Origin: Pseudovirgaria hyperparasitica
Taxonomy: Eukaryota
Direction: 5' to 3' (one strand)
DNA length: 63,450 nucleotides
Assembly: GCA_010093815.1 (NCBI GenBank)
Contig: ML996579.1
Position 1 is the stretch's first letter. Every line of letters begins with the position of its first letter. The notes under the pieces are model-generated. The model did no database searches and was not told the origin of the DNA. It saw only the letters and a list, made by a program, of their open reading frames with translations. The position numbers were made by a program, and so were the translations under genes. Below are positions 6,556 through 63,450 of the stretch, one piece after another.

Positions 6556-6586
6556 TTATTAGTTAAGGGCTGCCCTTAACTAATAA
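6556..6586. repeat. 31-bp perfect palindrome (15-bp arms) immediately 5' of the LINE ORF1 ATG
   Basis: ttattagttaagggc-t-gcccttaactaataa; ATG at 6589. Confidence 0.95.
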
Positions 6587-11365: not shown

Positions 11366-11396
11366 TTATTAGTTAAGGGCAGCCCTTAACTAATAA
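11366..11396. repeat. Same 31-bp palindrome, inverted, at the end of LINE ORF2
   Basis: ttattagttaagggc-a-gcccttaactaataa; also at ~26840, ~30179 and ~32144 in other copies. Confidence 0.95.
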
Positions 11397-13460
11397 CCTC
11401 CGCACCTATACGTACTACCTAAGGGTAAAATAACGGTAATATAGGCTATAGGCTAATAGGTGTACTCTATAGCTATATACTTAAGACGAAATAGAGGCTT
11501 AACGAGATGTAGTTATAGATATAAGGAAGTTTTTCCCTATAGGGTTTCTTCTTACATAGTGGCTTAGACTAGAGGAGGCATAGGCCTGTAGAGTACTACT
11601 CTACCTAGTTATATAATATTATTATTATTATTATTATAGAACCGCCGTGGTTATTAAGGTAGGAACGATAATCGGACGCGATCTACTTCTAAGGCCGACT
11701 CTACGTGCCGGAGGGCGGCTTACGAATTAATATTTTAAGGGAATAGCACGATTACGTATTAGTAGGACACTTTAGCATTATAAGGACGGTCGATTTAATC
11801 CGAAGGATGTATAACTAGCTAGGTCTTTATAAGTATATAAAGGACTACGTAAAAACATGTAACGTTTACTAGTATACGAAAGTATATAGACACTTACTAT
11901 ATAGCGAATTAAGGCTATTGCCTATACTAAATAAGGTATGGAAAGAATTATTAATGGATTTTATCATAGATCTACCCCTAAGTAAGTTTCTTAGGCATGT
12001 TTATAATAGTTTACTCATAGTTCTAGATAGATTTACGAAGATATTATACTATATCTCTATAAGAAAGATAATCTAAGCACCGGATCTTATAGATATACTA
12101 CTTCGTGACGTAGTTCGGCTCTATAGTATACCGAACGGCATAGTTTCGGATAGAGATCTATAGATAATATCTAAGTTTTAGAAGGATTTCTACTATACGC
12201 TAGGAATTAAGCGGAAACTTAGTACTACGTTCCACCTATAAATAGATAGGTAGATAGAGTGGTAGAATTAGATATTTAAGGCGTATTTACGCGTATATTA
12301 TAACTATAAGTAAGATAACTAGGTAAGGTTAGTCTATATCGCGGAATTCGCGTATAATAATAGCCGACATGCGTTAACCCACGTAAGTCCGTTCGAAGTA
12401 AACTTCGGTCGAAACCATAAAGCGTAGTTTATAGGAACTTAGTATAAATTAGAGTAGCCTAACGTTAAGGCAATAGAGATTATAATAGAACTATTCTAAA
12501 CGTAAAGAAGCGTTATAAAGTTATTATAAGATACTATAGATTATAGTAAATCGCACTATAATAAGGGTAGNNNNNNNNNNNNNNNNNNNNNNNNNNNNNN
12601 NNNNNNNNNNNNNNNNNNNNNNNNNNNNNNNNNNNNNNNNNNNNNNNNNNNNNNNNNNNNNNNNNNNNNNNNNNNNNNNNNNNNNNNNNNNNNNNNNNNN
12701 NNNNNNNNNNNNNNNNNNNNNNNNNNNNNNNNNNNNNNNNNNNNNNNNNNNNNNNNNNNNNNNNNNNNNNNNNNNNNNNNNNNNNNNNNNNNNNNNNNNN
12801 NNNNNNNNNNNNNNNNNNNNNNNNNNNNNNNNNNNNNNNNNNNNNNNNNNNNNNNNNNNNNNNNNNNNNNNNNNNNNNNNNNNNNNNNNNNNNNNNNNNN
12901 NNNNNNNNNNNNNNNNNNNNNNNNNNNNNNNNNNNNNNNNNNNNNNNNNNNNNNNNNNNNNNNNNNNNNNNNNNNNNNNNNNNNNNNNNNNNNNNNNNNN
13001 NNNNNNNNNNNNNNNNNNNNNNNNNNNNNNNNNNNNNNNNNNNNNNNNNNNNNNNNNNNNNNNNNNNNNNNNNNNNNNNNNNNNNNNNNNNNNNNNNNNN
13101 NNNNNNNNNNNNNNNNNNNNNNNNNNNNNNNNNNNNNNNNNNNNNNNNNNNNNNNNNNNNNNNNNNNNNNNNNNNNNNNNNNNNNNNNNNNNNNNNNNNN
13201 NNNNNNNNNNNNNNNNNNNNNNNNNNNNNNNNNNNNNNNNNNNNNNNNNNNNNNNNNNNNNNNNNNNNNNNNNNNNNNNNNNNNNNNNNNNNNNNTAAAA
13301 TTAAGAAAGCTAAAAGAAAATATAAAGATCTATATAGATCTATATAAACTCGTACTAATCTATCTAGAAGAAGTAAGATCGCTTTAAAATTAAACCTAAA
13401 AAACTAAAAACACTAGATAAAAGAGATATATTAGCACCGATTAGTATAGATCTAAACCGA

Positions 13461-14442
13461 TTAAGTCGGAGTAGGAGTAGAAGTACTAATTACCGCGATG
13501 GTTATATCTAATTCCTTCTACTAGTTCTTATTTAGTATAGTATAGAGCTTTATAACATAAGTCTCTAGCCTTTCGTTCCGACGCTATAAATTCTATATAG
13601 CGCGCCTTATAGCTATAAACTCCTCTATAGAAACCTATAGAGCGGCGGGACCCGGGACGGAGAGGGACGGACCGGCGCGCGCACGCTAAGAATTATATAA
13701 ATTAGCGAAAAGATTTAACGATCGGTATAGAACTATATACCTTTAGTATAGAAACTTCTAGATTAGAGCCATCTTCCCTAAATTTACGGCTCTTTAGCAC
13801 GCGCGAGGAAGGAACCTTAGCCTTTTTACTAGAACCTTTTCTAGGAATTCTAATATCGCCGGTATATAGAAAGAAGTCCGAAGTAGTAGAGATTTTAGCA
13901 CTATTATAGAGATTAATATATATTAGTAAGAATCTATAACGATTTAAGAAAAACGATGTTACCTAGTAATCGTGGTAATAATAGCTATAGTAGATTCCGA
14001 TAAATCCTTATAGATCTTATTAGAATTATACTCCTAGGCGTAACCCTTGCCTTAGGTATATAGCTCGTAGAAAGCCTTCTCTAAGGCGTTACGATTAGTA
14101 GTACCACGCTCCTTATCGGTAGGGGTTACTAGAGGCCTAGTAGTAATCTATACTAATATAAGTAAATCTACGTAAAGTTCTTTAAACTTACTTAAATACC
14201 TATAAGTAATAACGCTTCTTAGTTATATAAGTACCGTATATTATAGATTTAGTACCGCCGTAAGTAACGTACGATAGAAAGTAATAACCATAATAATATA
14301 TAGCTAGATTATTAGAGCCCGGCCTAGGTCGGCGTAGATTAATGGCTTTCGACATGTCGGTAACGTATATAAGATAGGGATTATTCGAAGGCCCCTATTT
14401 CCGCGCTAATTACTTTAGAGCGTTAAGATTTCGGGAAACCAT
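13461..14442 (-). pseudogene. Antisense spliced accessory gene of Gypsy copy 1 (RIPped)
   Basis: Homologous to 57915-58896; this copy retains the ATG (14442-14440), the intron-1 GT donor and a GCTAAT branch site in intron 3. Confidence 0.7.
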
Positions 14443-14925
14443 ATTACGATTATTATTAATTTATATAGATTATTACGAATTATATTATTACTAGCTAAGG
14501 ATGGTATGAAAATTAGTAAATTACGTAAATCGCACTAAATTATAGTAAATCTATATAAATCTATATCTATAAGGATTAGGTAATATATCTAATAATCTAA
14601 AAAACTCTATAAAGAGTTAAGAGGTTTTTTAAAGAAAGGAATATTTCTAAGAAAAGATTTTAATATAGGTAGCACCCGGGCTTACCTAATTACATCACGT
14701 GATACGCTAGGCCTAATTAGGTAATCTCACCTATATAAGAAGTTAAGATAGATAAAATCTAGTTTATTAGGAAACGCTTATATAAATCTTAGATCGGCGA
14801 ATATTAGTAAGTATCTAAGACGAAGCGTAGAGAACGACTAAGGTCTTATAAGACTTAGGATAGGGATATAGAGATAGGTAATAATCTAGGTCGCTAAGGG
14901 TAGCTTCCTAGAGGGAAGGGATAAT

Positions 14926-15153: not shown

Positions 15154-16485
15154 TATATTATTAGTACTAATAATATTAAGTAAATAGAATAATCTAATAA
15201 CTAGAAGTACCCTAGAATTAAGATTATAAAGGTATAGTAGAAGAATATATAAGGGATTAAGGTAAAATTAAAAAAGTACTCTACTATAATAGTAGAGCTC
15301 TAAGATTCTACCCTTATCTATTAGATTATATAGAAAGGCTTTTTAGCTAAGAGAGAGTTACTTATAGTAGAACTATAAAATAGAGTATAGATAATAATCT
15401 AATACTTTAACTATTAGAGATATAGATATATAGAGTAGAGATACTCTTAGAAGGCTATCTATAGATAGTACTAATAGAACTATAGTACCTAGAAATACCT
15501 ATATAAAGCCTAAGGGGATTATATATATAATAAAGATACTACTAAGTACTCTAACTACGATAGGAATTATCTATTATAGTTAGTAATATATATAAAATAT
15601 AAATAAATTACTAAGTATATTAATACTATAAAGATAAGAGAAGTAAGATAGATATAATAGACTATAAGGCCTCTACTATCTACTCTAACCTTATCTATAA
15701 CTATACTAACTAACTTATAAGAAGGTAGAACTAATATATAATAGTATACTATATAGAGAAAGATAGGGCGACTCTAGGGTATCCTTAAGGTAGCTACTAT
15801 ATAGGGATAGTCGCGCCTTAATACTACTAGTATATAGATTTAAGCGTTCTCTAGTATCTAATAAGGAGCTAAGATATACTTATTATTATATAGGTAAATA
15901 TATAATATAAATAAGAAAACTAGGCTATGCTTCTAGAAGAGATAGATACCGCTATAATAGCTATCTAGAAGCTATATAAATACTACTAAACTAATAAACT
16001 AATAATATACCTAGAATACTATATTATCTACCCCCTAGGCCTAGATAGAAGAGTTCTATTCTATATATATAAATCTATCCCGCTCTTAGAATAGTTCTAT
16101 ATAGAATAAGATAACCTCTAGATAATACTATACCTCTAGATAGATATAGGGCCTCTCTATATCTATAATATCTATAACTAGAGAGAATTACTTATACTAG
16201 ATACTATACTAGAGAGTATTACGGAACTAGAATAATATATCCTTCTAGGCGACTTTAACCTCTACTATAGATAGTAGAGAGGCCTAATAGTTATTAGAGA
16301 AGAGCTTAGAGTAAGAGAACTATATATAAGGTACTATAACCTTCTATATCTCCTTATACTAGTTAGATAAATTATATAGAGAAAATATAAGAATAATAAG
16401 GAGAGATCTATACTCGACCTTACTCTTACTATAGAATATATAAGCTATAGAGTATAATATTACTACCCTAGTAGAATATAGATAG

Positions 16486-19400: not shown

Positions 19401-22400
19401 GGAGCGTGTAAAGACCATTATAGAATGGCCAGAACCTACTACTATACGTTAAATTAGAATATTTATAGGTTTCGTGAACTATTATTATAAATTCATTATA
19501 GGCTTCTTATAAATTATAGCGCCGCTTAATAAACTTATAGAGAATAGCGGTAAAATCCCTATAGGTAGGCGAGTATAGCGTAAAGCTAAGTCGGTCGAGA
19601 TATAGTTAACGCCGGAAGCGCGAGATACGTTCCGATCGTTAAAGAATTACTTTATAACTACGCTAATTCTTAGGTATTTTAATCCTAAGAAGTATATTTA
19701 GGTCGAAACTAACGCGTTAGGATTTATAATTACTAGAATTATTAGTTAACCGTATAAAGATACGAAAGATAAGGTGTAATAGTACCCGGTCGCTTTCTTT
19801 TCCCGTAAAATGGCGGATATAGAGACACGTTATAACACATACGACTAGAAACTACTTATAATTATCGAGAGTTTTAAGTAATAGCGACATTATTTAGAAG
19901 GCTCTATATATTAGATTAAATTATTATCGGATCACGTAAATCTACGTTACTTTATATTAACTAAGGTCCTTAATCGCTGATAAGTACGTTAGGCTAAGTA
20001 GATGTTAATATTTAACTTTAAAATCTTATATAAAGCTAGAAGAGAGAATAAAGCTAATCCTCTATCGCGGCGTAAAGATTATAAGAAATCATCATAGAAT
20101 AACGTAGATAGTCAGTACAAGTTAGACTATGCTATACTTTAGATACTATAAGACTAGTTATCTAATAGAATGCTAGAAGCTAGGACACTTTCGGCGATTC
20201 TCCGCGGGAATTAGAGCGGGTATTAAGTAATCTAAATAAACGTCTAAGAAACTAAGAAAACCCTTAAAGACTTAATTAAATCTACCTAGAATTCCGATAT
20301 ATTAGTAAAGAAAGTTATAAGTATAAAAGGAAGCGCTATAGATCCGCCATAGTTATTAAGGTAGAAACAACAATTAGACGCGATCTACTTCTAAGGCCGA
20401 CTCTACGTGCCGGAAGGCGGCTTATAAATTAATATTTTAAGGGAATAGCACGATTACGCGTTAGTAGGGTACTTTAGCGTTATAAGGACGGTCGATTTAA
20501 TCCGAAGGACGTACGACTAGCTAGGTCTTTATAAGTATATAAAGGACTATATAAAAACGTATAACGTTTACTAGCATACGAAAGTATATAGACACTTACC
20601 ATATAGCGAATTAAGGCCATTACCTATACAAAATAAGGCTTGGAAAGAATTATCGATGGATTTTATTATAGATCTACCCCTAAGTAAGTATCTTAGGCAT
20701 GTTTATAATAGTTTACTCGTAGTTCTAGATAGATTTACGAAGATATTATACTATATCCCTATAAGGAAGATAATCCAAGCACCGGATCTTATAGATATAC
20801 TACTTCGTAATATAGTTCGGCTCTATAGTATACCGAACGGTATAGTTTTAGATAGAGGTCCGTAGATAACGTCTAAGTTTTAGAAGGATTTCTACTATAC
20901 GCTAGGAATTAAGCGGAAACTTAGTACTACGTTCTATCTATAAATAGATAGATAGATAGAGTAGTAGAATTAGATAGTTAAGGTGTATTTACGCGTATAT
21001 TATAACTATAAGTAAGATAACTAGGTAAGGTTAGTCTATATCGCGGAATTCGCGTATAATAATAGTCGATATACGTTAACCCACGTAAGTCTATTCGAAG
21101 TAAACTTCGGTTAAAACCATAAAGCGTAGTTTATAGAAACTTAGTATAAATTAGAGTAGCCTAACGTTAAGGCGACGGAGATTATAATAGAACTATTCTA
21201 AACGTAAAGAAGCGTTATAAAGTTATTATAAGATACTATAGATTATAGTAAATCGCACTATAATAAGGGTAGNNNNNNNNNNNNNNNNNNNNNNNNNNNN
21301 NNNNNNNNNNNNNNNNNNNNNNNNNNNNNNNNNNNNNNNNNNNNNNNNNNNNNNNNNNNNNNNNNNNNNNNNNNNNNNNNNNNNNNNNNNNNNNNNNNNN
21401 NNNNNNNNNNNNNNNNNNNNNNNNNNNNNNNNNNNNNNNNNNNNNNNNNNNNNNNNNNNNNNNNNNNNNNNNNNNNNNNNNNNNNNNNNNNNNNNNNNNN
21501 NNNNNNNNNNNNNNNNNNNNNNNNNNNNNNNNNNNNNNNNNNNNNNNNNNNNNNNNNNNNNNNNNNNNNNNNNNNNNNNNNNNNNNNNNNNNNNNNNNNN
21601 NNNNNNNNNNNNNNNNNNNNNNNNNNNNNNNNNNNNNNNNNNNNNNNNNNNNNNNNNNNNNNNNNNNNNNNNNNNNNNNNNNNNNNNNNNNNNNNNNNNN
21701 NNNNNNNNNNNNNNNNNNNNNNNNNNNNNNNNNNNNNNNNNNNNNNNNNNNNNNNNNNNNNNNNNNNNNNNNNNNNNNNNNNNNNNNNNNNNNNNNNNNN
21801 NNNNNNNNNNNNNNNNNNNNNNNNNNNNNNNNNNNNNNNNNNNNNNNNNNNNNNNNNNNNNNNNNNNNNNNNNNNNNNNNNNNNNNNNNNNNNNNNNNNN
21901 NNNNNNNNNNNNNNNNNNNNNNNNNNNNNNNNNNNNNNNNNNNNNNNNNNNNNNNNNNNNNNNNNNNNNNNNNNNNNNNNNNNNNNNNNNNNNNNNNNNN
22001 NNNNNNNNNNNNNNNNNNNNNNNNNNNNNNNNNNNNNNNNNNNNNNNNNNNNNNNNNNNNNNNNNNNNNNNNNNNNNNNNNNNNNNNNNNNNNNNNNNNN
22101 NNNNNNNNNNNNNNNNNNNNNNNNNNNNNNNNNNNNNNNNNNNNNNNNNNNNNNNNNNNNNNNNNNNNNNNNNNNNNNNNNNNNNNNNNNNNNNNNNNNN
22201 NNNNNNNNNNNNNNNNNNNNNNNNNNNNNNNNNNNNNNNNNNNNNNNNNNNNNNNNNNNNNNTAAAATTAAGAAAGCTAAAAGAAAATATAAAGATCTAT
22301 ATAGATCTATATAAACTCGTACTAATCTATCTAGAAGAAGTAAGATCGCTTTAAAATAGAAACCGAAAAAACTAAAAACGCTAGATAAAAGAGACATATT

Positions 22401-24122
22401 AGTACTAATTAGTATAGATCTAAACCGATTAAGTTGGAGTAGGAGTAGAAGTACTAATTACCGCGATAGTTATATCTAATTCCTTCCGCTAGTTCTTATT
22501 TAGTATAGTATAGAGCTTTATAATATAAGTCTCTAGCCTTTCGTTCTAACGCTATAAATTCTATATAGCGCGCCTTATAGCTATAAACTCCTCTATAGAA
22601 ACCTACGGAGCGGCGGGACCCGGGATAGAGAGGGACGGACTAGCGCGGGCACGCTAAGAATTATATAAATTAGCGAAAAGATTTAACGATCGGTATAGAA
22701 CCATATACCTTTAGTATAGAAACTTCTAGATTAGAGCTATCTTCCCTAAATTTATAGCTCTTTAGCACGCGCGAGGAAGGAACCTTAGTCTTTTTACTAG
22801 AACCTTTTCTAGGAGTTTTAATATTACTAGTATATAGAAAGAAGTCCGAAGTGGTAGATATTCTAGTACTATTATAGAGATTAATATATATTAGTAAGAA
22901 TCTATAACGATTTAAGAAAAACGATATTACCTAGTAATCGCGGTAATAATAGCTATAGTAGATTCCGATAAATCCTTACGGATCTTATTAGAATCGTACT
23001 CCTAGGCGTAACCCTTGCCTTAGGTATATAGCTTATAGAAAGCCTTCTCTAAGGCGTTACGATCGGTAGTACCACGCTCCTTATTAGTAGGGGTTACTAG
23101 AGGCCTAGTAGTAATCTATACTAATATAAGTAAATCTACGTAAAGTTCTTCGAACTTACTTAAATATCTATAAGTAATAACGCTTCTTAGTTATATAAGT
23201 ACCGTATATTATAGATTTAGTACCGCCGTAAGTAATATATAACGGAAAGCGATAACTATAATAATATATAGCTAGATTATTAGAGCCCGGCCTAGGTCAG
23301 GGTAGATTAATAGCTTTCGACATATTAGTAACGTATACGAGATAGAGATTATTTAAAGGCGCCTGTTTCCGTACCGATTACTTTAGAGCGTCGAGATTTC
23401 GGGAAACTATATTATAATTATTATTAATTTATGCGGATTATTACGAATTATATTATTACTAGCTAAGGACGGCACGAAAATTAGTAAATTGCGTAAATCG
23501 CACTAAATTATAGTAAATCTACATAAATCTATATCTATAAGGATCGGGTAATATACCTAATAATCTAAAAAACTCTATAAAGAGTTAAGAAGTTTTTTAA
23601 AGAAAGGAATATTTCTAAGAAAAGATTTTAATATAGGTAGTACCCGGGCTTATCTAATTACATTACGTGATACGCTAGGCCTAATTAGGTAATCTTACCT
23701 ATATAAGAAGTTAAGATGGATAAAATCTAGTTTATTAGGAAAACGCTTGTGTAAATCTTAGATTAGTAAATATTAGTAAGTATCTAAGACGAAGCGTAGA
23801 GAACGACTAAGGTCTTACGAGACTTAGGATAGAGATATAGGGATAGGTAACGATCTAGGTTACTAAGGGTAGCTTCCTAGAGGGAAGGGATAATTATTAG
23901 AACTTAGCCTTAGGTAGGACCCGATCTACACGTACCTTAGTTAATAGAGTTAGGAGGTAATATAAAGGGCGGTAAATAGTTACGTGCTAGATAGATCGGC
24001 GTCCCTTTATATATATACTCTCGGATTCCTACCGAAAGGGTTCGGTAGTAATTCGTTCTATGATAGAATACACCCTATTGTTCTATCTAACTACACTACT
24101 ATCCAATAACCCTATTCTTATA
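16486..24122 (+). mobile_element. Ty3/Gypsy LTR retrotransposon copy 2, RIP-inactivated
   Basis: LTRs 16486-16713 and 23895-24122; TSD gatag (16481-16485 and 24123-24127); collinear gag-PR-RT-RH-INT relics; ORF 20656-20865 is an integrase core fragment (MDFIIDLP..VVLDRFTK). Confidence 0.93.
22429..23410 (-). pseudogene. Antisense spliced accessory gene of Gypsy copy 2 (RIPped)
   Basis: Homologous to 57915-58896; retains a CAG codon (cgg aaa cag gcg) where the other two copies have TAG. Confidence 0.7.
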
Positions 24123-26587
24123 GATAGACTCTAACTATAAATATATAGAGACTATAATAGATATATCTATATCTAATAAATAATAGAGAAGATAGCTATA
24201 GAAAGATACTAACTAGAAGAAGTATAGGGAGAACCTAGAATTAGTAATTCTAGACCCCTCTATAGTTAATATATCTAATAGCCCGACTATAGATAGAGCC
24301 GTATAAGTTCTTCTTTAAGCCTTCTAAAACTTAAGAGATAAATATATACTATACTAAATATATAAGTCTCTAGATATAAGGGGTATACTCTAAATATATA
24401 AAAGTAGAAGAGAAGCCCGGAGACTATATATATATATACTATATCTAGATAACTAAGATATAGAAGGAATAGAAAGAGGTAATCTAATCTTATAATAGGA
24501 CTCTCTATAATAAATAATATAAATACTAGTATATAATTACTAAGAAATATATATAATAGACTATAGAGCTATAGTATATAGTAAAGTAGGCTAAGAGTAT
24601 AGACGTGCTAATACTACTACTACTAATATATCCCCTAATATACTAGGGGAGGATATATACTATAAGCCCCGAAAAGATAGAGATTCTCTAAGAAGTTATA
24701 TTTCCCCCCCTAGAGCTAGTAGATCTATTAGATATTAATAATAATATATATCTAGACGCGGTTAATATCTCTATAGAGATTATAGAAAAGGATATACTTA
24801 ATACTATTAAAGTACTCCTAAATAATAAAGTATCTAGACTAGATAGAATACTAAATAGATATCTTAAATATACTATATAGGTAACCTTACTACTTATTAG
24901 TCTTATCTTCTAGATATATACTAAGAATAGATACTATCTCTAAAGCTTCTAGACTATCTATACTATTATACTTCTAAAGCTAGAGAAGAACCCTAACTCT
25001 CTAAAAGAATAGAGACTAATTACTCTTCTCTTCTATCTTAGTAAGATATTTAAAACTATAATTGCGAAGAAGATAAGTACTATAGTATAAGAATATAATC
25101 TTCTTCTAGTAAACTAGAAGGCGAAGACTAGGAGCTCTCTAATTACTACTATCTAATATATTCTTAAAGTTATCTAGACTATATAGAAGTAGAGATATAT
25201 AATAATATTACTCTCCCTTAATATAGCTAGCGTATTTAATAAGGTAAACTATATAAGACTTATCTATAATCTATAGAAGAGATATATATCTAAATAGATT
25301 ATAAAGTTTATATAATTCTTTCTTACTAAAAGAATTATCTAGATATATATCTCTAGATATTAAAGTAAATATAAGAAGATAATATATAGTATTCTATAAG
25401 GAAGTACTATCTCCCTAATCCTCTTTCTTTTCTTTACTATAGACCTTCTATAGAGAATATAATATATAGAGATAGTAGAATATACTAATAATATATACCT
25501 TCTAGCTATTAATAATAATACTAGTTTAATATATAAATACCTTAAATAAGACTATAAGAGATATATCTAGTAGGTAAAGCGCTATAGAGTAAAGTTCGCC
25601 CCTAAGAAATACTAACTTATATACTTTATTAACTACTATAGAAGATAGACTACTAAGGAAGAAGAGTAATATTCTAGAATAGATACTTTTACTAAACTAC
25701 TAATATAGAGTATACGTGTACTTAGTATTATAATTAATAATAAACTTAAATAGAGTCTATAGATTATATATACTATATCTAGAGCCCTTAAGATAGAAGC
25801 TACTATATACTAGATTACGGCCTCTATATAGAGAACTACCTAGAATAAGGCGCGCTAGCTATATATATCTATAGTATAATCTACCTTTATATATAGATAT
25901 AAGTACTAGTATATAGCCCTTATATAGACTAGGCGAATAAAGCTTAAGTCTATATAGAACTATATACTCTACCTTATATCTAGTATATATAAAGCTACTA
26001 ATATAGTACTACTATAACACGAGATAAATATAATAAGTATATAGAACTTCTACTAGATATAGAGGGTAATATACTTTACTAAATAATAAGTATAGAAATA
26101 TATAGGATATACTAAATATACCTTCGCTATACTATATATATAAGTTAGTATCTACTATTAAGCGCTACTATATATAGTCTAGACTTAACTATAGTATAAG
26201 AGTCTAATAGAGATAGACTTAAACTAAATTATATAAGAGATTAGGGATAATCTAGACGCCTCTCTAGACTAGTAGAACCCTTAGAAGCTTATACAGGCTA
26301 TATAGTTATAGACCTAGAATAAATAGAAGGAAGTTCTCTAGATCTATTAGATATCCTAATAGAATAGATATCTAGAATAGATTTAGAAACTATAGAAGAA
26401 ACTAAGTAGATAGATATATAAAGGGCTTATAAAAGCCTAAGTATCTATCCTTCTCTAAGCCCGAATAGAAGCTATAGAACTTCTATACTATCTATATTAG
26501 AGAGATATCCTAGACACGTCTCTATAGTATAAAGTATATAGCTAGAGAGATATAATATAGTACTATCTTATAATATATCTAGACCTC

Positions 26588-26595
<8 letters not shown>

Positions 26596-26619
<24 letters not shown>

Positions 26620-29600
26620 TTATATAACTAGGTAGAGTAGTACTCTATAGGCCTATGCCTCCTCTAGTCTAAGCCACTATATAAGAAGAAACCCTATAGA
26701 GAAAAACTTCCTTATATCTATAACTACATCTCATTAAACCTCTATTTCGTCTTAAGTATATAGCTATAGAGTACGCCTATTAGCCTATAGCCTATATTAC
26801 TATTATTTTACCCTTAGGTAGCACGTATAGGTGCGGAGGTTATTAGTTAAGGGCTGCCCTTAACTAATAATCGGGGTTCTTCTAGGGTTCTTCCGGTATA
26901 TATCGGGTTACTACCGGCGTATACCAGGTCTCTTCCAGCATATATTTCCGGGTCCACTAGTACTAGAGGAGTAGTAGATATATAAGTATCTATCAAGAGA
27001 CATCCTTAGGGTACTTATTAAGCTATCATACAATATCTAAAGTCTTCATAACGTAGATAAGCTATTACCATTATATATAGAGGTTAGAGTATATAGCTAG
27101 ATAGTGGCGTATTATACCTCTCCGGCCGCACGCCTTATACTATAGGGAGGTATTAGGAACGCCTCTCTTATAGATATAGTATAGGAGTCCTATAGCGCCC
27201 GTTCGGGCTTAGATGAGTATAGATGCTTAGGCTTTCGTTAGCCCTTTATATATCTATTTACTCGGTTCCTTCTATGGCCCTCGAATCTACTCTAGATACC
27301 TATCCTACTAGGAGGTCTAGTAGGTACGGAGTGCCTCTTTCTACTTATCTTAAGTCCACGACCGTATATTTTTCACGAGTTCTTAAAGGCTCTACTAGTC
27401 TAGGAGAGCGTCCGGGTTATCTCGGACTTCTTATACTACTTAGCTAGAGTCGGCTTCTATTAAGTATCTATACCGTATTTAATTCTAGCCTATATATAGG
27501 AGTGCGCGGTAATATATACTAATTCATACACGTAGCGCGGCGAAAGTATATTCTACGTTTTCTATGCGTTCCTATACTTATTATTTAGTAAAGTATACTA
27601 CCCTCTATGTCTAGTAGAAGTTATATATACTTATGACGTCTGTCTCGCGTTATAGTAGCACTATATTAGTAGCTTTATATGCGCCTAATATAAGACGGAG
27701 TATACGGTTCTATATAGATTCGAGCTTTATTTACCTAGTCTATATAAGGGCCATATACTAGCACTCGTGTCCGTACGTAAAGGCGGGTCATGCTATAGAT
27801 ATATATAGCTAGCGTACCTTATCCCGGGCGGTTCCCTACGTAGAGGCTATAATCTATTATATAGCGGCTTCTATCTAGAAGGCCCTAGAGACGGCGTATA
27901 CCACTTATAGTCCCTATTTAAGCTTACTATCTAGTATAACTCTAAGCGCGCGCATGCTTTATACTAGTAGTTCGTTAAATACGTCGATTCGGGGGCGTCG
28001 TTCGCCTTCCCTAGTTACCTATTTCCCTTAATAATTAATAAAGTGTATAAGCTAGTATTTCTCTAGGGCGAACTTTACTCTATAGCGTTTTACCCACTAG
28101 AGGCACCTCTCGTGGTTCTATTCTAGTCGTCTATACGTTCGGTTAGTATTATTATTAATAGCTAGGAGGTATATGTTATCGGCGTATCCGACTACCTCTA
28201 TATACTTTATTCCTTAAAGAAGGTCTACCGTAAAGAAGAGGAATAGAATCGGAGAGATGGTGCTCCCTTATAGGATGCCGTATACCGTCTCTTTATATTT
28301 ACTCTAGTACCTAGGGATATATATCTAAGTTATTCTTCCTATAAGGAATGACTATATAAAGCGTATAATCCATTCTAGTATTCGTCTTATCTAGAGGTTA
28401 TAAATAAGTCTTATATGGTTTACCTTATTAAACGCTCCGGCCATATCGAGGGAGAGGAGCGATACTACCCGTCCCTATTTCCATGCGGCCTAGACGACTT
28501 TAATAATGTGTTAGATAGCTATTATTAGGGAGCTATCTACCTTTACCTTCTAGTTTAGAGGGAGGAGATTATATTTCTATGCCGCGGTACTTATCTTCTT
28601 TACTATCATGGCCTCTAGTATCTTACCTAGGTAGAAGAGAAGGGCGATTGGTCTCCATCCCTTTAGGGAGTTAGGGCTCTTTCCTAGTTTCGGGAGCATG
28701 ATAGTATAGGCGACTCGGAAGCTCTAGGGGTGGTACCCCTACGTAACGTATACTTAGCCTCTAGTTCGAAGTCGGATGACTCCTATAGGTTCGACGTGCT
28801 CTATACCATTAGGCCCTACTCCTGTTTTCGCCTTATCTTATCCCCTTTAGGCTTATACCTCCGGCTCTACTAGAAGAGGGGCACGACGCCTCCTCTAGCT
28901 AGGAAACTACGAGGTTTACTCCTTAAACCTATATTACTAGCGTACGTACCTAGCGACACGTTCTATCTCTTTATAAATCGATACGCGTATCCGTTCTCTC
29001 GGGCCATATAGTAGTCTCCCCGGCTAGGACGTAATCCCGCCTACTTCTAGATATACTAAAGGTTAGAGCCCATTAAAGGGGTAAGGTCCTTAGAGCTAGT
29101 AGTTACTACTATATACCACGCCCTACCTTTAAGCATAGCTACTATCCGGTTTCGTATTACCTATAGAGATCTCTCTACGATAGGCCGACCGTGTCTTATA
29201 GGCGAGTATCCTTTAAATTCTATACGTGTATACTTACGTGACGCGCCTAGGCGACTTAAGTATTCTCTATCTACTAACCCGATCTATTTCTACTACTTTT
29301 TAATAGGTCCCTATAGCCGCCTCTTGCCTATATCCGTGTACTATTATATATATATACTAGCGCCCTACCTCCTACGGTAGACTATAACATCTCTTATACG
29401 CGGGAGCTACTCTATCTATCCTAGACCTAAGCGGTATCCTATATCGAGCGAAAGGTCTTAATAGAGTCGCGCTACTAGTGGTCGCGCTAGGCGTCTTAAT
29501 AAACGTAGTTTAATACTATAGGAGAGTTAGCCTTAATAAGTTCATCCGTAGTAGTTTATAGTTGCCCTCGACGTGATTTCTCGCTAATTCTTACGCACCT

Positions 29601-29960
29601 AGAGCTATTTAAGCCTCGAGGTGTTCTATCGCGCTACTAGGACTTCCGCTTTCTCTACCTATATAGTAAGGTAGATTCAGGCCTACTTTTAACATAGTAG
29701 TAGCACGTTAGATGGTTTTCTTATCCCGGTATCCTCGTGGACTTCTCTTAACGCGTTAATTAAGAACAGGATAGAAGTATATACTATCCTAGCTGGTTTA
29801 TTATGGTGTGGTCCCTATAGAGTAACGCGTCGCGAAAACTCTATAACTACCTACCTAGCGACGACGAGGTCACCATTAACGCCGCTCTAAACCTCTTACT
29901 ACCTCCGAAGAGGCATTGCCTAGCTACGACGACGTAGACGCGGTTCGTGAGACTTCGTAG
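26596..29960 (-). mobile_element. Chimeric MINE-like retroelement copy A: head X (29960-28757, 1,204 bp) fused to a 5'-truncated LINE (28756-26596)
   Basis: TSD ctagacctctatatata at 26579-26595 and 29961-29977; tail reads (TAA)n on the plus strand at ~26597-26620; LINE part starts at the position equivalent to ~9480 (RT region). Confidence 0.88.
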
Positions 29961-32765
29961 CTAGACCTCTATATATAGAGATAATTACTTATCTATATAA
30001 TAAGAACCTCTAATATTATATAGTAGCTTAATAAGTACTCTAAGAAGATTACCTAGTAGATACTTATATATCTCTCTCTCCCTTAATACTAATAGATCTA
30101 GATATATATACTAGAAGTAACTAGGTATATACTAGATAGACCCTAGCGTACGTTAGAAGAACCCTAGAAGAACTCTAATTATTAGTTAAGGGTAACCCTT
30201 AACTAATAACCCCTATACTCTATATATACTATCTAAGGGTAAAATAATAGTACTATAGATTATAGGCCTATAAATATTTCTAATAGCTATATACTTAAGA
30301 TAATATAAAGGTTTAATAAGATATAGTTATAGAGAGAAGGGAGTTTTTCCTTTTATAAAGGTTTCTTCTTATATAATAGCTTAGACTAGAGAAGGTATAT
30401 ATCTATAGAGTAAACTACTCTACCTAGTTATATAATATTATTATTATTATTATAGTATTAAACTATATTTATTAAGATATCTAGTATAATTACTAATAGT
30501 ATAACTCTATTAAGATCTTTTACTTAATATAGAATACTACTTAGATCTAGAATAGATAGAGTAGCTTCTATATATAAGAGATATTATAGTCTACTATAGA
30601 AGGTAGAGCGCTAGTATATATAAATAATAATATATAGATATAGATAAGAGATAGTTATAGGGATCTATTAAAAAATAGTAGAAATAAATTAGATTAGTAG
30701 ATAGAGAATACTTAAGTTACCTAGGCGTATTATATAAGTATATATATATAGAATTTAAAGAATACTTATCTATAAGATATAGTTAGTCTATTATAGAGAG
30801 ATTCTTATAGATAATATAAAACTAGATAGTAGCTATACTTAAAGGCGGGATATAGTATATAATAATAACTACTAGCTCTAAGGACCTTATCCCTTTAATA
30901 GATTCTAATCTTTAATATATCTAGAAGTAGATAGAATTATATTCTAGCTAGAGAGACTACTATATAGTCTAAGAGAATAAATATATATATTAATTTATAA
31001 AGAGATAGAATATATTACTAGATATATATACTAGTAATATAGATTTAAAGAGTAAATCTTATAGTTCTCTAGCTAGAGAAGGTATTATATCTCTCTTCTA
31101 GTAGAGCTAGAGATATAAGTCTAAAGAGAATAAGATAAGATAAAAATAGAAGTAGAGTCTAATAGTATAGGGCACGTTAAACCTATAGAAGTTATCTAAC
31201 TTCGAACTAGAGACTCTATAGTATAACCCGCCTTTATATACGGATATAAGTACTAGTATATAGCTCTTATATAGACTAGGCGAATAAAGCTCGAATCTAT
31301 ATAGAACTATATACTCTATCTTATATTAGATATATATAAAGCTACTAATATAGTACTACTATAACACGAGATAGATATTATAAGTATATATAACTTCTAC
31401 TAGATATAGAGAGTAGTATACTTTACTAAATAATAAGTATAGAAATATATAGAAAATATAGAATATACTTTTACTATACTATATATATAAATTAGTATAT
31501 ATTACTATATACTTCTATATATAGACTAGAATTAAATAGGGTATAAGTACTTAATAGAAGCTAACTCTAGCTAAGTAGTATAAGAAGTCTAAGATAATCT
31601 AGATACTCTTCTAGACTAGTAGAGCCCTTAAAAACTTATAAAAAATATATAGTTATAGACCTAAGATAAATAGAAAAAGATACTCTATATCTACTAGATC
31701 TTCTAGTAGAATAGATATCTAGAATAGATTTAAGAGCTATAGAAGAAACTAAGTAATTAGATATATAAAGAACTAATAAAAGCCTAAGTATCTATACTTA
31801 TCTAAGTCTAAATAGATATTATAGAACTTCTATATTATCTCTATAAGTAAGATATTCCTAATATCTCTCTATAGTATAAGGTATATAGCTAGAGAGATAT
31901 AATATACTACTATCTAGCTATATACTCTAACCTTTATATATAATAGTAATAGCTTATCTATATTATAAAGACTTTAGATATTATATAATAGCTTAATAAG
32001 TATTCTAAGAATATCTTCTAATAGATACTTATATATCTATTACTTCTCTAGTACTAGTAGATCTAGAAATATATACTAAAAGAGACCTAGTATATACTAG
32101 TAGTAATCTAATATATACTAGAAGAACCCTAGAAGAACTCTAATTATTAGTTAAGGATAGCTCTTAACTAATAACCTCTATATCTATATATACTATCTAA
32201 GGGTAAAATAATAGTAATATAGACTATAGACTAATAGATATACTCTATAGCTATATACTTAAGATAAAATAAAGATTTAATAAAATATAGTTATAGATAT
32301 AAAGAAGTTTTTCTTTATAGAGTTTCTTCTTATATAGTAGCTTAGACTAGAGAAGATATAGATCTATAGAGTACTACTCTATCTAGTTATATAATAATAT
32401 TATTATTATTATATATATATAAGAGGTTATTATACTTAGTATACTCTATTAATTAATATATATAGATTACTAAAGTAAATTCTACTAGTATTTTAATATT
32501 TATATATATATATAGACCTTTCTATAGCCGTAGATAGTTATCTCTTTAAGCTTTTTAATAAAATATACTTTATATACTATATATTATATTTCTTAGTCTT
32601 ATTTATTTAAGATACCTTCTATACTACTACCTCTACTTAAGGTAATATTATTATATATATCTTTTAAAACCTTATGGTTTATATATATATATATATAACT
32701 TATGAAGTTTTAGTATATTCCGCTATCTATCCATACCCTTTTTGGCGTGGGACCATTCTATTTAT

Positions 32766-48752: not shown

Positions 48753-48990
48753 TATAAGAATTAAGTAAATAGATAGTAGTATAGCTAGATAGAGTAATAG
48801 AGTATATTCTATTATAGAATAAATTACTACTAAATCCTTTTAGTAGTAATTAAAGAGTATATATATAGATATAAGAGATACTAATCTATCTAGTATATAA
48901 CTATTTACTACTAATTATACTACTATCTCTAACTATCTTAGCTAAGATATATATAAATCTAGTCTAGTAGTCTTTAGCTAATTTCTAATA
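48753..48990 (-). repeat. Degenerate isolated LTR related to the Gypsy family
   Basis: Aligns by eye to 57203-57430 (tataagaat...tattctattatagaataaattactactaaatccttttagtag...ttctaata). Confidence 0.7.
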
Positions 48991-49287
48991 ATTAATATAA
49001 AACTTATAGTTCTAGTATAGATATAATATTTACTCTTAGAGTAGTAGACTAAGTAGTTATTACTTTATATATAGATTCTTATATTTTAAATAATATTAAA
49101 AATATATTAATATTTATCTTACTTAGATTATACTAGATACCTTACTAATACTTTATATATTCTTTAAAAATTAGTCTTTTATATATATAAGTTACTAAAG
49201 TAATTAAAATTTTTAGAAGTAATATTTTTAAAGAGTAATATATACTTTTTAGGCATGTAGTAATTCTAAATATAGTCTATCTCTACA

Positions 49288-57202: not shown

Positions 57203-60200
57203 TATAAGAATAGGGTTATTAGATAGTAGTATAGTTAGATAGAACAATGGGGTGTATTCTATTATAGAACGAATTACTACTAAACCCTTTTAGTAGGAAT
57301 CCGAGAGTATATATATAAAGGGACGCCGATCTATCTAGTACGTAACTATTTACTACCCTTTACGTTACCTTCTAACTCTATTAGCTAAGATATATATAGA
57401 TTAGGTCCTATCTAAGGCTAAGTTCTAATAATTATCCCTTCTCTCTAGGAAGCTACCCTTAGCGACCTAGATTATTATCTATCTCTATATCCCTATTCTA
57501 AGTCTCGTAAGACCTTAGTCGTTCTCTATGCTTTATCTTAGATACTTACTAATATTTACTAATCTAAGATTTATATAAGCGTTTTCCTAATAAACTAGAT
57601 TTTATCCATCTTAACTTCTTATATAGGTAAGATTACCTAATTAGGCCTAGCGTATTATGTAATATAATTAGATAAGCCTAGGTACTACCTATATTAAAAT
57701 CTTTTCTTAGAAATATTCCTTTCTTTAAAAAACTTCTTAACTCTTTATAGAGTTTTTTAGATTATTAGATATATCACCCGATCCTTATAGATATAGATTT
57801 ATATAGATTTACTATAATTTAGTACGATTTATATAATTTACTAATTTTCGTGCCGTCCTTAGCTAGTAATAATATAATTTATAATAATCCGTATAAATTA
57901 ATAATAATTATAATATAGTTTCCCGAAATCTTAATGCTCTAAAGTAATTAGCGCGGAAATAGGCGCCTTTAAATAATCCCTATCTTATATACGTTACCGA
58001 TATATCGAAAGCTATTAATCTACCCTAACCTAGGCCGGGCTCTAATAATCTAGCTATATATTATTATAGTTATCGCTTTCTATCGTATATTACTTACGGT
58101 AGTACTAAATCTATAATATACGGTACTTATATAACTAAGAAGCGTTATTACTTATAGATATTTAAGTAAGTTCGAAGAACTTTACGTAGATTTACTTATA
58201 TTAGTATAGATTACTACTAGGCCTCTAGTAACCCCTACTAATAAGGAGTATAGTACTACTAATCGTAACGCCTTAGAGAAGGCTTTCTACGAGCTATATA
58301 CCTAAGGTAAGGGTTACGCCTAGGAGTACGATTCTAATAAGATCCGTAAGGATTTATTAGAATCTACTATAGCTATTATTACCGTAATTACTAGGTAATA
58401 TCGTTTTTCTTAAATTATTATAGATTCTTACTAATATATATTAATCTCTATAATAGTGCTAAAATCTCTACTACTTCGGACTTCTTTCTATATACTAGTA
58501 ATATTAGAATTCCTAGAAAAGGTTCTAGTAAAAAGGCTAAGGTTTCTTCCTCGCGCGTGCTAAAGAGCTATAAATTTAGGGAAGATAGCTCTAATCTAGA
58601 AGTTTCTATACTAAAGGTATATAGTTCTATACCGATCGTTAAATCTTTTTACTAATTTATATAATTCTTAGCGTGCCCGCGCTAGTCCGTCCCTCTCTAT
58701 CCCAGGTCCCGCCGCTCCGTAGGTTTCTATAGAGGAGTTTATAGCTATAAGGCGCGCTATATAGAATTTATAGCGTCGGAATAAAAGGCTAGAGACTTAT
58801 ATTATAAAGCTCTATACTATACTAAATAAGAACTAGCGGAAGGAATTAGACGTAACTATCGCGGTAATTAGTACTTCTACTCCTACTCCGACTTAATCGG
58901 TTTAGATCTATACTAATTAGTACTAATATATCTCTTTTATCTAGCGTTTTTGGTTTTTCGGTTTTAATTTTAAAGCGATCTTACTTCTTCTAGATAGATT
59001 AGTACAAGTTTATATAGATCTATATAGATCTTTATATTTTCTTTTAGCTTTCTTAATTTTATCTTTCTTTAATAATAACTTCTTTAATCTCTTTAGTAAT
59101 CTATACTAATCTATACCGATCGGCACCGATTTTCGATGTCTATTTCTCTTAGTAAATCATTTTTCTAAGTCTCTTTTTTAGTTAAATTTTTTAAAGTTCT
59201 AAGTTTAAACTTTCTAAGGAAGTTTCTTAATTCCTTAGAATGTTTTAAAGATCTATATCTCTTTTACCTTCTTCCTTTTAGGCGGCCGTCCTTAGCACTA
59301 AACTATACTAAAAAATATCGAATTACCGTACTTTAGTATAATTCTCTACGATTCCGCGGCTTCCTTTACTAATTACTACTTATATACTAATATCGCTACT
59401 TTACTAATGTTTATTATAGGTTCCTAAGTATCTTCGTTAGGATTATATTCTTTCTAATAAATTTTATATAGCCACGTACCATCTTTAGCGCGTTACTAGC
59501 TAAGTATCTACTTAACTTTATAGATATCTATATCTTCTTACGTAACTACTTTATATAGTATCTATTTAGAATAATCTGGTAATAATAAGGTATGAAATGG
59601 CTCGAGAAGCGTAATATGGAATATATTATATATCTTTAATATAGAAGGGAGTTATAACTCGTACGCCTAGTTATTAATTATATAAGTAATCTTATATAGA
59701 CCTATTATTATATAGTTAAGCTTCTTCTTTGGCCTAATACTATAAATATTCTTACTATTTAGTAAAACTTTATCCCTAACATTAAAGATCATAGGTTTTC
59801 TACCCTTATTATAGTACGATTTACTATAATTCATAGTATCTTATAGTAACTTTATAATACTTCTTTACGTTTAGAATAGTTCTATAGTAATTTCTATTAC
59901 TTTAATATTAGGTCGTTCTACTTTAAACTAAGTCCCTAAGAACTATATATTATGGTTCTAACCGAAGTTTACTTCGAACGGACTTACGTAGGTTAACGTA
60001 TATCGGCTATTATTATACGCGAATTCCGCGATATAGACTAACCTTAGCTAGTTATCCTACTTATAGTTATAATATACGCGTAAATACACCTCGACTATCT
60101 AATTCTACCGCTCCGTCTATCTATCTATTTATAGGTAGAACGTAGTACTAAGTTTCCGCTTAATTCCTAGCGTATAGTAGAAATCCTTCTAAAATTTAGA

Positions 60201-63200
60201 CATTATCTACGGACCTCTATCCGAAACTATACTATTTAGTATACCGTAGAGCCGGACTATATTATAGAGTAGTATATCTATAAGATCCGGTGCTTGGATC
60301 GTCTTCCTTATAGGGATATAGTATAATATCTTTATAAATCTATCTAGAACTATAAGTAAACTATTATAAATATACCTAGAATACTTACTTAGGGGTAGAT
60401 CTATGATAAAATCCATCGATAATTCCTTCCATGCCTCCTTTAGCATAGATAATAGCCTTAATTCGCTATATGGTAAGTGTCTATATACTTTCGTATACTG
60501 GCAAACGTTATACGTTTTTATATAGTCTTTTATATATTTATAAAGACCCGGCTAGTCGTACGTCCTTCGGATTAAATCGACCGTCCTTATAACGCTAAAG
60601 TACCCTACTAACACGTAATCGTACTATTCCCTTAAAATATCGATTTATAAGCCGCCTTCCGGTATATAGAGTTGGCCTTAGAAGTAGATCGCGTCTAATT
60701 ATCGTTCCTACCTTAATAACCACGGTAGATCTATAGCGCTTCCTTTTATACTTATAACTTTCTTTACTAATATATTAGAATTCTAGGTAGATTTAATTAA
60801 GTCTTTAAGGGTTTTCTTAGTTTCTTAGACGTTTATTTAGATTACTTAATACCCGCTCTAATTCCCGCGGAGAATCGCCGAAAGTGTCCTAGCTTCTAGT
60901 ATTCTATTAGATAACTAGTCTTATAGTATCTAAAGTATAGTATAGTCTAAATTACACCAACTATCTACATCATTCTATAACAATTTCTTATAATCTTTAT
61001 ACCGCGATAGAGGATTAGCTTTATTCTCTCTTCTAGCTTTATATAAGATTTTAAAGTTAAATATTAATATCTACTTAGCCTAACGTACTTATCGGCGATT
61101 AAGGACCTTAGTTAATATAAAGTAACATAGATTTACATAATCCAATAATAATTCAATCTAATATACAGAGCCTTCTAAATAATATCACTATTACTTAAAA
61201 CTCTTAATAATTATAAGTAGTTCCTAGTCATGCGTGTTATAACGCGTCTCTATATCCGCTATTTTACGGGAAAAGAAAGCGACCGGGTGCTATTACACCT
61301 TGTCTTTCGTATCTTTATACGGTTAACTAATAATTCTAGTAATTACGAATTCTAATATGTTAGTTTTAACCTAAATATACTTCTTAGGATTAAAATACCT
61401 AAGAATCGGCGTAGTTATAAAGTAATTCTTTAATAATTAGAACGTATCTTACGCTTCTAGCGTTAACTATATCTTAACTAACTTAGCTTTACGCTATGCT
61501 CGCCTACCTATAGAGATTTTACTACTATTCTCTATAAGTTTATTAAGCGGCGCTATAATTCGTAAGAAGTCTATAATGAATTTATAATAATAGTTTACGA
61601 AACCTATAAATGTTCTAATTTAACGTATAGTAGTAGGTTCTAGCTATTCTATAATGGTCTTTACACGCTCCGGCTCTATTTTTAGGCCGCTATATATAAT
61701 AATAAAGCCGAGAAACCGAACTTCTTATTAGTGAAACTTGTATTTAGATAATTTTACGTAGAGTTTATACTACCTTAGACAATTTAGCACCGATTTCATA
61801 TGTTCTTTATAATCCTATATACTATTAGAGTAAATTAGTATATTATTAAGATAAACTACGTAAATCACGTTAAGTAATCCTACGAGTATAGTATTAATAT
61901 ATCCTTAGAACGCTCCTAGCGCATTTATTAGCCCGAATGGTATAATAGTATACTTAAAATAACTATATCTAGTCCGAAATGTGGTTTTCTACTCATCTCC
62001 GCGACGAATTTAAAGCTAGTAATATATATCTTATAAATCTAGCTTCGTAAAGTACTTTACCTTTATTAATTAGTCTAAAGATTTACTAACTAGCGGTAAT
62101 AGATAACGATTCTTCTTAGTTACCGTATTTAGTATCTAATAGTCGACGTATAGACGTAAACTTCCGTCTTTCTTCTTTACAAAGAGAATAGATGCGCTAG
62201 CTAATAATATACTACGACGTATCTAGCCTCTTCTAAGGTATTCTTCGATATATTTATAAAGAACTTCGAGTTCTAGTCTCGAAAGTAGGTAAAGTAGACT
62301 ATAAGGGACGTCTACTCCCTCTTTAAGCTTAATCTTTAGCTTATACGGCCCGTAATTAGGGAGAAGTAACGTATCTTCTACCGAAAACATATCCGTATAC
62401 TACGAATATATATCGGGTAGCGTGTCTTTGCCCTAATTATTACTATCGTCCTTATCTTTATTAATGATTAATAAGGATATAAGATAGATTAGCGATAATT
62501 AGGTCCGTACGGCGAGGTTCTATGCCTTCTTACTAATAGTTACGACTTACTAGTATAATTTACTATAGTATCGTCGGAACGTTAATATCTCCTTCTAAAA
62601 ATTAAGGATAGGGTTTAGGCGTCTAAGCTAAGGCATCCCTAGAATTATATTCTATTAGCTAATATTAGCCACGATGAATTTATTAGACATCTACTATTTT
62701 ATTATCTTCGAGTTATGAACTTTGTAATTCGTTATAGCTTTACCTAAAGTTCTAACTTTATATCTATTAACTATAATAGTTTGGCTAACTTTACTAAGAT
62801 TATATAATAATCTATACTCCTTTACGAGAATCGATAAAATATAGTTATCTTCTATACTAGTATCCACGAGGGCCTATATAGTTTTATTACTATTTACTAT
62901 AGGTAATAATACTTTTAGTAATATTAGGTCTTTACTTACCGGAAGGCGCTACGGCTCCTCCTAAGTATATATAATTTAGCTAAGGACGCGGTTAGGTCTC
63001 GTGTACTAGTCTATTCTTTTTTTGGATTCTTATAGTTAGGCGAAATATATCCTATTTCTCTATACTTATAGTAACGAAGTGCGCTATAATCCTACTATTT
63101 TACGATAGGCGTTATATTTAAGCCTATATCTTATTCTTTTCCGCGTTAAGAAGCACCGCCTTAATTATTTCGGTGTCCTCTTAACGCGTTTCTACCCCGA

Positions 63201-63450
63201 TTTACGCTCTTCTAGCGCTAATCGCGGTAAGGTTACTCTTAATCGAACGTATTCGATTGACCTCGTTTCTAACCTATATAGGGTTCGTTAGTTTTACCTA
63301 GAGAGCCGCGTTCCTTAAGGATGCGGTAGTATTTATTAGCTTTCTCCTCTAATTCGTGTAGATAGTTAAAACTTAATAATACTATTTCTAGTCTTTCGCG
63401 GATTAACGGAAGTAGCACTTCGCGAAACTAGAATATACGAATATTTTCCT
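57203..63450 (-). mobile_element. Ty3/Gypsy chromovirus copy 3 (3' LTR 57203-57430), truncated by the window end within gag
   Basis: Reverse complement of copies 1 and 2; fills their gap and shows a chromodomain relic at ~59404-59530 (DIY.V..IL...RAKDGTWLYKIL*KEYNPNEDT*EP); integrase fragment ORF 60207-60446. Confidence 0.93.
57915..58896 (+). pseudogene. Antisense, three-intron accessory gene of Gypsy copy 3 (~270 aa; exons 57915-58157, 58210-58394, 58457-58616, 58672-58896)
   Basis: Introns of 52, 62 and 55 nt end in TAG with branch-like motifs; GT donors are seen in introns 2 and 3, and in intron 1 in copy 1 only; removal gives an 813-nt frame whose internal stops are all TAA/TAG (RIP-compatible). 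Confidence 0.72.

Follow-up and report, generated by a model that had tools for sequence, protein, structure and literature searches.

A candidate antisense gene between pol and the 3' LTR of a RIP-saturated fungal chromovirus

Does the long interval between pol and the 3' long terminal repeat (LTR) of a fungal retrotransposon hold the remains of a gene of its own, read against the element? The question arises from a 63,450-nucleotide stretch of Pseudovirgaria hyperparasitica (contig ML996579.1 of assembly GCA_010093815.1; this whole stretch is referred to as the window), in which an earlier reading of the letters alone, hereafter the sequence-only reading, had proposed an intron-bearing antisense accessory gene. 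The element is a Ty3/Gypsy chromovirus, saturated by repeat-induced point mutation (RIP) and located on the minus strand in the copy analysed here, copy 3. From codon statistics of the spacer and comparison to un-RIPed relatives, we consider the chances evenly balanced that this spacer holds a RIP-killed antisense gene centred on 58210-58896. The position and orientation of the candidate, the codon-phase periodicity of the DNA and the occurrence of such genes in relatives are observed.

The element, its spacer and the spliced model

Copy 3 covers 57203-63450 on the minus strand, and a Pfam scan places its domains in one shared frame (RVT_1 at 4e-21, RT_RNaseH_2, Integrase_H2C2, rve and SH3_Tf2-1), i.e. 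reverse transcriptase, RNase H and integrase follow each other in chromovirus order within a single pol frame, in which in-frame stops amount to 7.3%. Used as a query, the mutated pol translation retrieves 1249 proteins at E<=1e-20. Chromodomain PF00385 is present in almost all of the 120 relatives listed (the best 120 of 1249), and the named ones among the matches listed are from Ascomycota, together with one Tremellales record; on the RIPed pol translation itself, which is heavily mutated, Pfam Chromo has no match at E<=0.01. The pol alignments stop at query residues 1340-1395, 2-50 residues short of the relatives' C-termini, and since they end by residue ~1394, pol homology stops near nt 59268. 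From here to the 3' LTR the spacer measures 1.84 kb, in agreement with the ~1.9 kb between chromodomain and LTR of the sequence-only reading. No Pfam family is found in its six frames at E<=0.01, and a purine-rich tract lies at its edge by the 3' LTR (~57431-57444, minus strand). The LTR is ~230 nt long, as determined from five aligned LTR copies. Element and model are arranged as follows.

59268..63450, minus strand: pol of Gypsy copy 3, extending beyond the window, with reverse transcriptase, RNase H, integrase, SH3 and a chromodomain-like end
57431..59267, no strand: spacer from the end of pol homology to the 3' LTR, 1.84 kb, no Pfam family
57203..57430, minus strand: complete 3' LTR of copy 3, 228 nt, from the alignment of five LTR copies
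57915..58157, plus strand: model exon 1, start ATA in copy 3 and ATG in copy 1, 4 stops
58158..58209, plus strand: model intron 1, 52 nt, donor ATATTT in copy 3 and GTATTT in copy 1, non-consensus
58210..58394, plus strand: model exon 2, 2 stops, strong codon-phase periodicity, third position T/C-rich
58395..58456, plus strand: model intron 2, 62 nt, donor GTAACA/GTAATA, non-consensus, open in the frame of exon 3
58457..58616, plus strand: model exon 3, no stops, Ser/Lys-rich and basic, inside an 86-codon open stretch
58617..58671, plus strand: model intron 3, 55 nt, AAG|GTATAT .. (C)GCTAAT .. TTAG
58672..58896, plus strand: model exon 4, 5 stops including the terminal one, helix-like sequence, moderate coding signal
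13461..14442, minus strand: span of the model in copy 1, the element itself on the plus strand
22429..23410, minus strand: span of the model in copy 2, the element itself on the plus strand

Excision of the three segments reproduces the single 813-nt frame described before, i.e. 271 codons on the plus strand within spacer 57431-59267, opposite to the minus-strand element. Its 982-bp span is likewise found in copies 1 and 2, on the opposite strand at the places given above, and the details reported for them are seen: copy 1 retains the ATG, the GT of intron 1 and a branch (CGCTAAT), and copy 2 has CAG where the other copies have TAG. Copies 1 and 2 are 93-94% identical to the copy 3 spacer and possess 5-bp target-site duplications (TATAT at copy 1, GATAG at copy 2), hence the spacer travelled through retrotransposition. 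The family is very high-copy, with thousands of contig pieces in the DNA-run contigs. Runs of N occur at 3623-3837, 12571-13295 and 21273-22262 of the window; two of these replace the junction of pol end and spacer in copies 1 and 2, a part that corresponds to 59062-59799 in copy 3, so that the junction is readable only in copy 3.

RIP has been extensive in this DNA, with dinucleotide shares of 0.9% for CA, 1.2% for TG and 16-19% for TA. Differences between copies are almost all transitions, mostly CG<->TA, and the variants in the DNA-run contigs are transition-only, with one A>T place and no indels. When 57440-59061 is compared to 13296-14916 and 22263-23885, paired CG<->TA changes dominate and TG/CA intermediates are few, a pattern that fits a slow first change at CpG and a rapid second one at the TpG or CpA it leaves. 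All three element copies in the window are dead. As C-to-T change at CpA is saturated, any TA may once have been TA, CA, TG or CG, and a RIP scar can be claimed for any TAA or TAG, making openness after de-RIP unfalsifiable from three copies. Because the copies differ almost only by transitions, they carry no information on selection among them. In addition, the spacer contains a single one-base indel between copies, located outside the model, and the question of whether indels gather in the predicted introns is therefore uninformative.

In each of the three copies the frame contains 11 stops in 271 codons, including the terminal one (10 internal). A three-copy consensus favouring C and G lowers this to 9 including the terminal one, and the open frame that the sequence-only reading looked for after de-RIP did not emerge, as 8 internal stops remain. 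The internal stops are all TAA or TAG and thus RIP-compatible, but whether they are scars cannot be told, since CpA/TpG is saturated.

Codon-phase signal of the spacer and antisense genes of relatives

The phase of TA dinucleotides sets the candidate apart from other RIPed DNA. In the model, 0.52 of all TA lie at the junction of codon positions 3|1, compared to 0.38+-0.03 in Markov nulls (maximum 0.45, n=120) and at most 0.49 in all 412 minimum-stop models drawn from control RIPed DNA, sense pol included. For host genes of the window after in-silico RIP the share is 0.48+-0.07, and 38% of the 65 gene windows reach at least 0.50. In a sliding chi-square of TA phase the spacer peaks at 22.2, while none of 1735 control windows exceeds 16.5; among the windows listed the statistic is highest around 58430-58630 (15.5-16.6). 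By exon it reaches 12.7 in exon 2 and 15.75 in exon 3, the latter having the strongest TA periodicity among the RIPed DNA of the window, and the phase counts are 16/14/21 in exon 1, 7/8/23 in exon 2 and 7/12/17 in exon 4. The dominant phase changes between exons 2 and 3. An open stretch of 86 codons (58395-58652), within RIP-saturated DNA, takes in intron 2 and exon 3.

Since TA is palindromic, phase periodicity alone cannot distinguish the strands. Third positions of the candidate are T-rich, unlike those of pol, and a second codon model was for this reason trained on host genes, using nine host ORFs (open reading frames) of the window after in-silico RIP. This model picks out the correct frame of the naturally RIPed pol (+0.122 bit/codon) and assigns the full antisense model a log-likelihood ratio (LLR) of +30.4 over 270 codons. 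Exon 2 scores +11.7, its two alternative plus frames -7.8 and -20.8, and the minus frame aligned with it +5.5; exon 3 scores +9.8, and exon 4 +9.3 with +1.0 for its aligned minus counterpart. For each of these three exons the model frame outscores both the remaining plus frames and the aligned minus frames. The best chain of the plus strand reaches 58.0, above 200/200 Markov nulls (maximum 55.9), and that of the minus strand 49.5.

These figures bear on a reading in which the coding strand is the sense strand, with pol extended at its C-terminus, or a third ORF in sense orientation, casting the antisense frames as its shadow. Compatible with it, the one of the three spacer minus frames that continues pol is poorest in stops (8.4% versus 11.8% and 12.6%), few stops occur in plus frame 1 along the whole element, and TA is its own complement; indeed, such an extension was tried as a candidate when the six-frame stop profile of the spacer was seen to mirror that of pol. 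It was rejected, as no relative's pol aligns past query residue ~1395 with a query spanning the whole spacer and the minus-strand LLR is low, i.e. below the model frame in all three exons and in the best chain. Moreover, stops per 100 codons in 58400-58699 number 8 in minus frame 2 and 3 in plus frame 0. We regard sense coding as highly improbable.

A gene on the antisense strand may also have come from elsewhere, the periodic part (~58210-58650) representing a host-gene fragment captured in reverse, a passenger rather than a functional accessory gene. Its third positions (T 0.45) and TA phasing are nearer to host genes RIPed in silico than to pol, and gene capture is among the origins of such ORFs discussed in PMC7264820. 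Against this stand the lack of a similar protein among 5.8 billion clusters and 1.84 billion representatives, as well as the presence of the segment in 3/3 copies and in a family of thousands of contig pieces. A captured fragment is thus improbable in our view.

The reading of an element-borne antisense gene draws further on un-RIPed relatives, for which 69 metagenome loci were fetched with an alignment of 12 pol relatives. Many of these loci have antisense ORFs immediately after pol, including ORFs of 153-199 aa just past pol in the LTR-bounded elements L017, L018 and L027. The antisense ORFs of L016 and L018 are 72% identical with a ratio of non-synonymous to synonymous substitution (dN/dS) of 0.14, the remaining frames giving 1.1-2.0, and those of L017 and L020 have pN 0.22 and pS 0.81: the antisense genes of relatives are under purifying selection. 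Several have canonical introns. In L047 a 46-nt intron (GTGAGT..GCTAAC..CAG) joins 94 and 190 codons to 284 aa, removal of a 50-nt intron in L012 completes CX2CX6CX11CX2CX6C in a 340-aa protein, and a 44-nt intron in L003 leaves the ORFs fused in frame. In 38 spacers, strict intron signals number 29 antisense versus 8 sense.

Zinc-cluster spacing occurs 6 times antisense and once sense, the latter a Cys run, in 520 kb. The six-Cys Zn2Cys6 spacing of intact relatives is found at these places, and in their products the six-Cys part is followed by basic, helical and acidic parts.

L012:4622-5694, minus strand: six-Cys Zn2Cys6 spacing
L044:5240-5836, minus strand: six-Cys Zn2Cys6 spacing
L062:2923-3336, minus strand: six-Cys Zn2Cys6 spacing
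L016:3816-4400, minus strand: six-Cys Zn2Cys6 spacing
L034 ~12719, minus strand: six-Cys Zn2Cys6 spacing

Pfam Zn_clus matches stay below threshold (0.0045 for L044; 11/37 members of the L016 family, best 8.9e-4). The L016 ORF has 143 homologues, the named ones being hypothetical proteins of a basidiomycete, and the L044 protein groups with unnamed Ascomycota clusters. A PDB profile search with the L016 family returned nothing but designed coiled coils (E~0.65).

Stops, introns and homology weighed

Several results weigh against a gene at this locus, and they are best read together with the simplest alternative, namely that the spacer is non-coding (a long 3' untranslated region or regulatory DNA) and the frame was picked by eye: TA-rich RIPed DNA is full of GTA, TAG and CTAAT, and any stop in it can be explained away as a RIP scar. 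No copy (0/3) keeps the frame open, as would be expected of most copies of an additional antisense ORF at this place (aORF-3R, the class of brtn, gene23, RIRE2 and Retand). The stop count is at chance level: when three GT..AG introns of 45-75 nt may be placed freely, at most 11 stops are reached by 67% and at most 8 by 17% of 120 simulated regions (second-order Markov), and at most 11 are also found in 11% of spans antisense to pol. The same applies to the intron signals. Introns of fungi, 40-120 nt long, have GTRNGT as donor, CTRAY as branch and YAG as acceptor. With RIP-aware strict requirements (donor GT[AG][AGT][GA]T, CTRAY branch, YAG), introns 1 and 2 fail at the donor and intron 3 is the sole one to pass, strict donors occurring at 0-3.1 per kb, or about 2 per kb, on either strand of the RIPed DNA here.

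The codon statistics contain opposing results, too. Exon 1 is without coding signal (LLR -0.4), single 60-codon windows are unexceptional against the Markov null, and the best-chain LLR antisense to pol, 58-77, equals or tops that of the candidate strand. Among 332 control models, 3.9% attain the LLR of 30.4, and every one of these lies antisense to pol. Training on pol instead yields a codon model of weak power, by which the antisense model scores -9.7 and -16.8, closer to the values of non-coding DNA (-24 to -33) than to that of coding DNA (+14). Among 39 relatives, ORFs of at least 130 aa number 12 antisense and 12 sense, a count blurred by circularly assembled contigs and flanking genes.

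Homology, finally, is missing for the candidate: the mutated pol as control found its 1249 relatives and the candidate none, homologues of its protein having been sought by tblastn, phmmer, Pfam and a metagenome scan. The six frames and the spliced model reach a best E of 0.27 in tblastn against the 69 related loci, a word-indexed search with plus frame 1 has 0/244 candidates at E<=10, and the metagenome scan has 0 confirmed among 270 pattern matches. RIP-aware alignment to the antisense proteins of 15 relatives, scored by mixture log-odds, gives p~0.29 and 0.44. The Atlas gives the 86-aa open stretch a low recognition score (1068) and a best match of 0.76. The protein searches covered 5.8 billion clusters and 1.84 billion representatives; in the latter, phmmer with frame 0 returned one match, P0002 (E 1.6e-4), which was dismissed as spurious, being repeat-rich with a lipoprotein-like N-terminus and aligned across 'intron 1' and out-of-frame sequence.

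Non-coding DNA is thus a serious contender, if one to which we give somewhat less than an even chance. It has to contend with TA periodicity above all 412 control models and 1735 control windows, with a best chain above every one of the 200 Markov nulls, with the 86-codon opening in RIP-saturated DNA, and with the fact that long-spacer relatives often carry antisense genes. For the antisense, intron-bearing accessory gene of the sequence-only reading, the kind of gene stands, as it exists in un-RIPed relatives, and as to the particulars, stops and intron signals at the window locus are no better than chance. The model of exon 1 and introns 1 and 2 is unsupported, and the exon model as a whole unproven. 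That the locus ever coded is what we infer, and the same holds for exon borders, start and function.

Upstream of the model start, the host-trained model yields +16.3 for 159 codons of 57500-57980 on the plus strand (frame coordinate mod 3 = 1), and RIP-aware intron-like donors are located at 57769 and 57803. The gene, if any, may start nearer to the LTR than the model does.

If the antisense gene is real, the spacer would contain what RIP has left of a gene carried by the element itself, encoded against gag-pol and arranged tail to tail with pol. By established logic, the introns of a gene antisense to the genomic RNA stay unspliced in the transposition intermediate and are therefore copied with the element. 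The product may have been a small nuclear protein with a Cys-rich or zinc-cluster-like part, a basic stretch and a helix, presumably acting as a regulator of the element; the anti-silencing function suggested by the sequence-only reading finds no support. In the frame of exon 1, a run of Tyr at 58062-58151 would fit Zn2Cys6 spacing in 3/3 copies if Tyr stands for former Cys (TGY>TAY). Such fits occur at 0.29/1000 aa in controls, so that 0.08 are expected for 271 aa and 0.5 for the strand as a whole, and the run as a former Zn2Cys6 cluster is a lead only. The actual Cys pattern CX2CX6CX5-12CX2CX6-8C and Pfam PF00172 are both absent from the candidate. A shorter motif, CxxCx5-8C read as Tyr, was dismissed as evidence, being too frequent in RIPed frames (0.39/100 aa).

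Taken further, the candidate may be a RIP-killed antisense regulator of Gal4 type, in which a helix and a basic stretch for nuclear targeting accompanied a Zn2Cys6 cluster whose Cys now read as Tyr. It would then belong to a widespread, fast-evolving and almost undescribed intron-bearing class, through which chromoviruses of Ascomycota and Basidiomycota encode their own DNA-binding factor, e.g. driving or tuning LTR transcription. We consider this extended proposal doubtful, with perhaps a modest chance of being right.

Outside the element, the middle of the window holds ordinary fungal host genes (Nup98-96, Opi1, Cdc23, polyprenyl synthase and Sdh cytochrome b), between flanks made up of AT-rich repeats. 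Besides the Gypsy element, the repeats include a non-LTR retrotransposon family with Exo_endo_phos_2 and RVT_1, located at 6319-11634 (plus strand), 26000-30000 (minus strand), 1349-2375, 15158-16481 and 24119-24724. One less mutated copy of it (GC content ~0.43) is nested in Gypsy copy 1, and Gypsy copy 2 is itself nested in another copy of this family. Isolated among the host genes, an LTR-like stretch at 48753-48994 is 78% identical to the Gypsy LTR and may be an old solo LTR.

Significance and known systems

For the window itself the matter is a small one, as the copies are dead and RIP has erased CpA/TpG, leaving the gene, if there was one, unreadable. What reaches beyond it is that antisense genes under selection and with introns occur in intact related chromoviruses, a zinc-cluster signature being present in several of them, and that such genes are annotated as hypothetical proteins or omitted from genome annotations. 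If it is true that fungal retroelements encode transcription-factor-like proteins, this matters for their activation and for the ways in which they evade host silencing or enlist it. The long pol-to-LTR spacers that libraries of transposable elements call non-coding would be accounted for as well.

The sequence-only reading held that canonical fungal chromoviruses encode only gag and pol, which is contradicted both by the genes of relatives and by brtn, and it did not recognise the locus as a described feature, where brtn of Boty was already in print. According to PMC7264820, PMC8365987 and PMC4227169, brtn is an antisense gene between pol and the 3' LTR of the Botrytis/Sclerotinia element Boty; PMC7264820 reviews the plant ORFs that lie antisense in the interval from pol to 3' LTR and names Boty as a fungal case, and PMC8365987 states that brtn of BcGypsy1 is missing from the current B05.10 annotation. 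General search results turned up no records named brtn, and PMC9409477, considered as a source for it, was discarded as a match of author name only. Besides these brtn citations, our literature search found no account of antisense genes with introns or a zinc cluster in LTR elements of fungi. The plant cases listed in PMC7264820 include maize Grande gene23, rice RIRE2, Silene Retand and Phaseolus PvRetro13; as described there, most of the products are without database similarity, gene23 shows nuclear localisation, and an internal promoter drives antisense transcription.

Compared by description, brtn in Boty resembles the window locus in belonging to a fungal Ty3/Gypsy element with chromodomain, and in being an extra gene on the opposite strand in the interval between pol and 3' LTR. 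It differs in that brtn copies are intact and reported as a gene, whereas the window locus is wrecked by RIP. The plant antisense ORFs, also compared by description, share place and orientation with the window locus. They reside in plant elements, mostly of the non-chromovirus Tat/Retand lineages, and introns go unmentioned in the passages of PMC7264820 consulted.

The closest parallels are the antisense genes of the relatives (L012, L016/L018, L017/L020, L027, L034, L044, L047 and L062). Even allowing for RIP, they have no detectable similarity to the window candidate; they are intact and selected, several with the exact CX2CX6CX5-12CX2CX6-8C, whereas the candidate is RIP-wrecked. They are found in the same element type and the same spacer, tail to tail with pol, and encode 150-340 aa with basic and helical segments, with short fungal introns in 3-4 cases. 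Hence, the kind of gene, antisense and located from pol to the 3' LTR, is real and already published, and the window locus, if real, adds one more.

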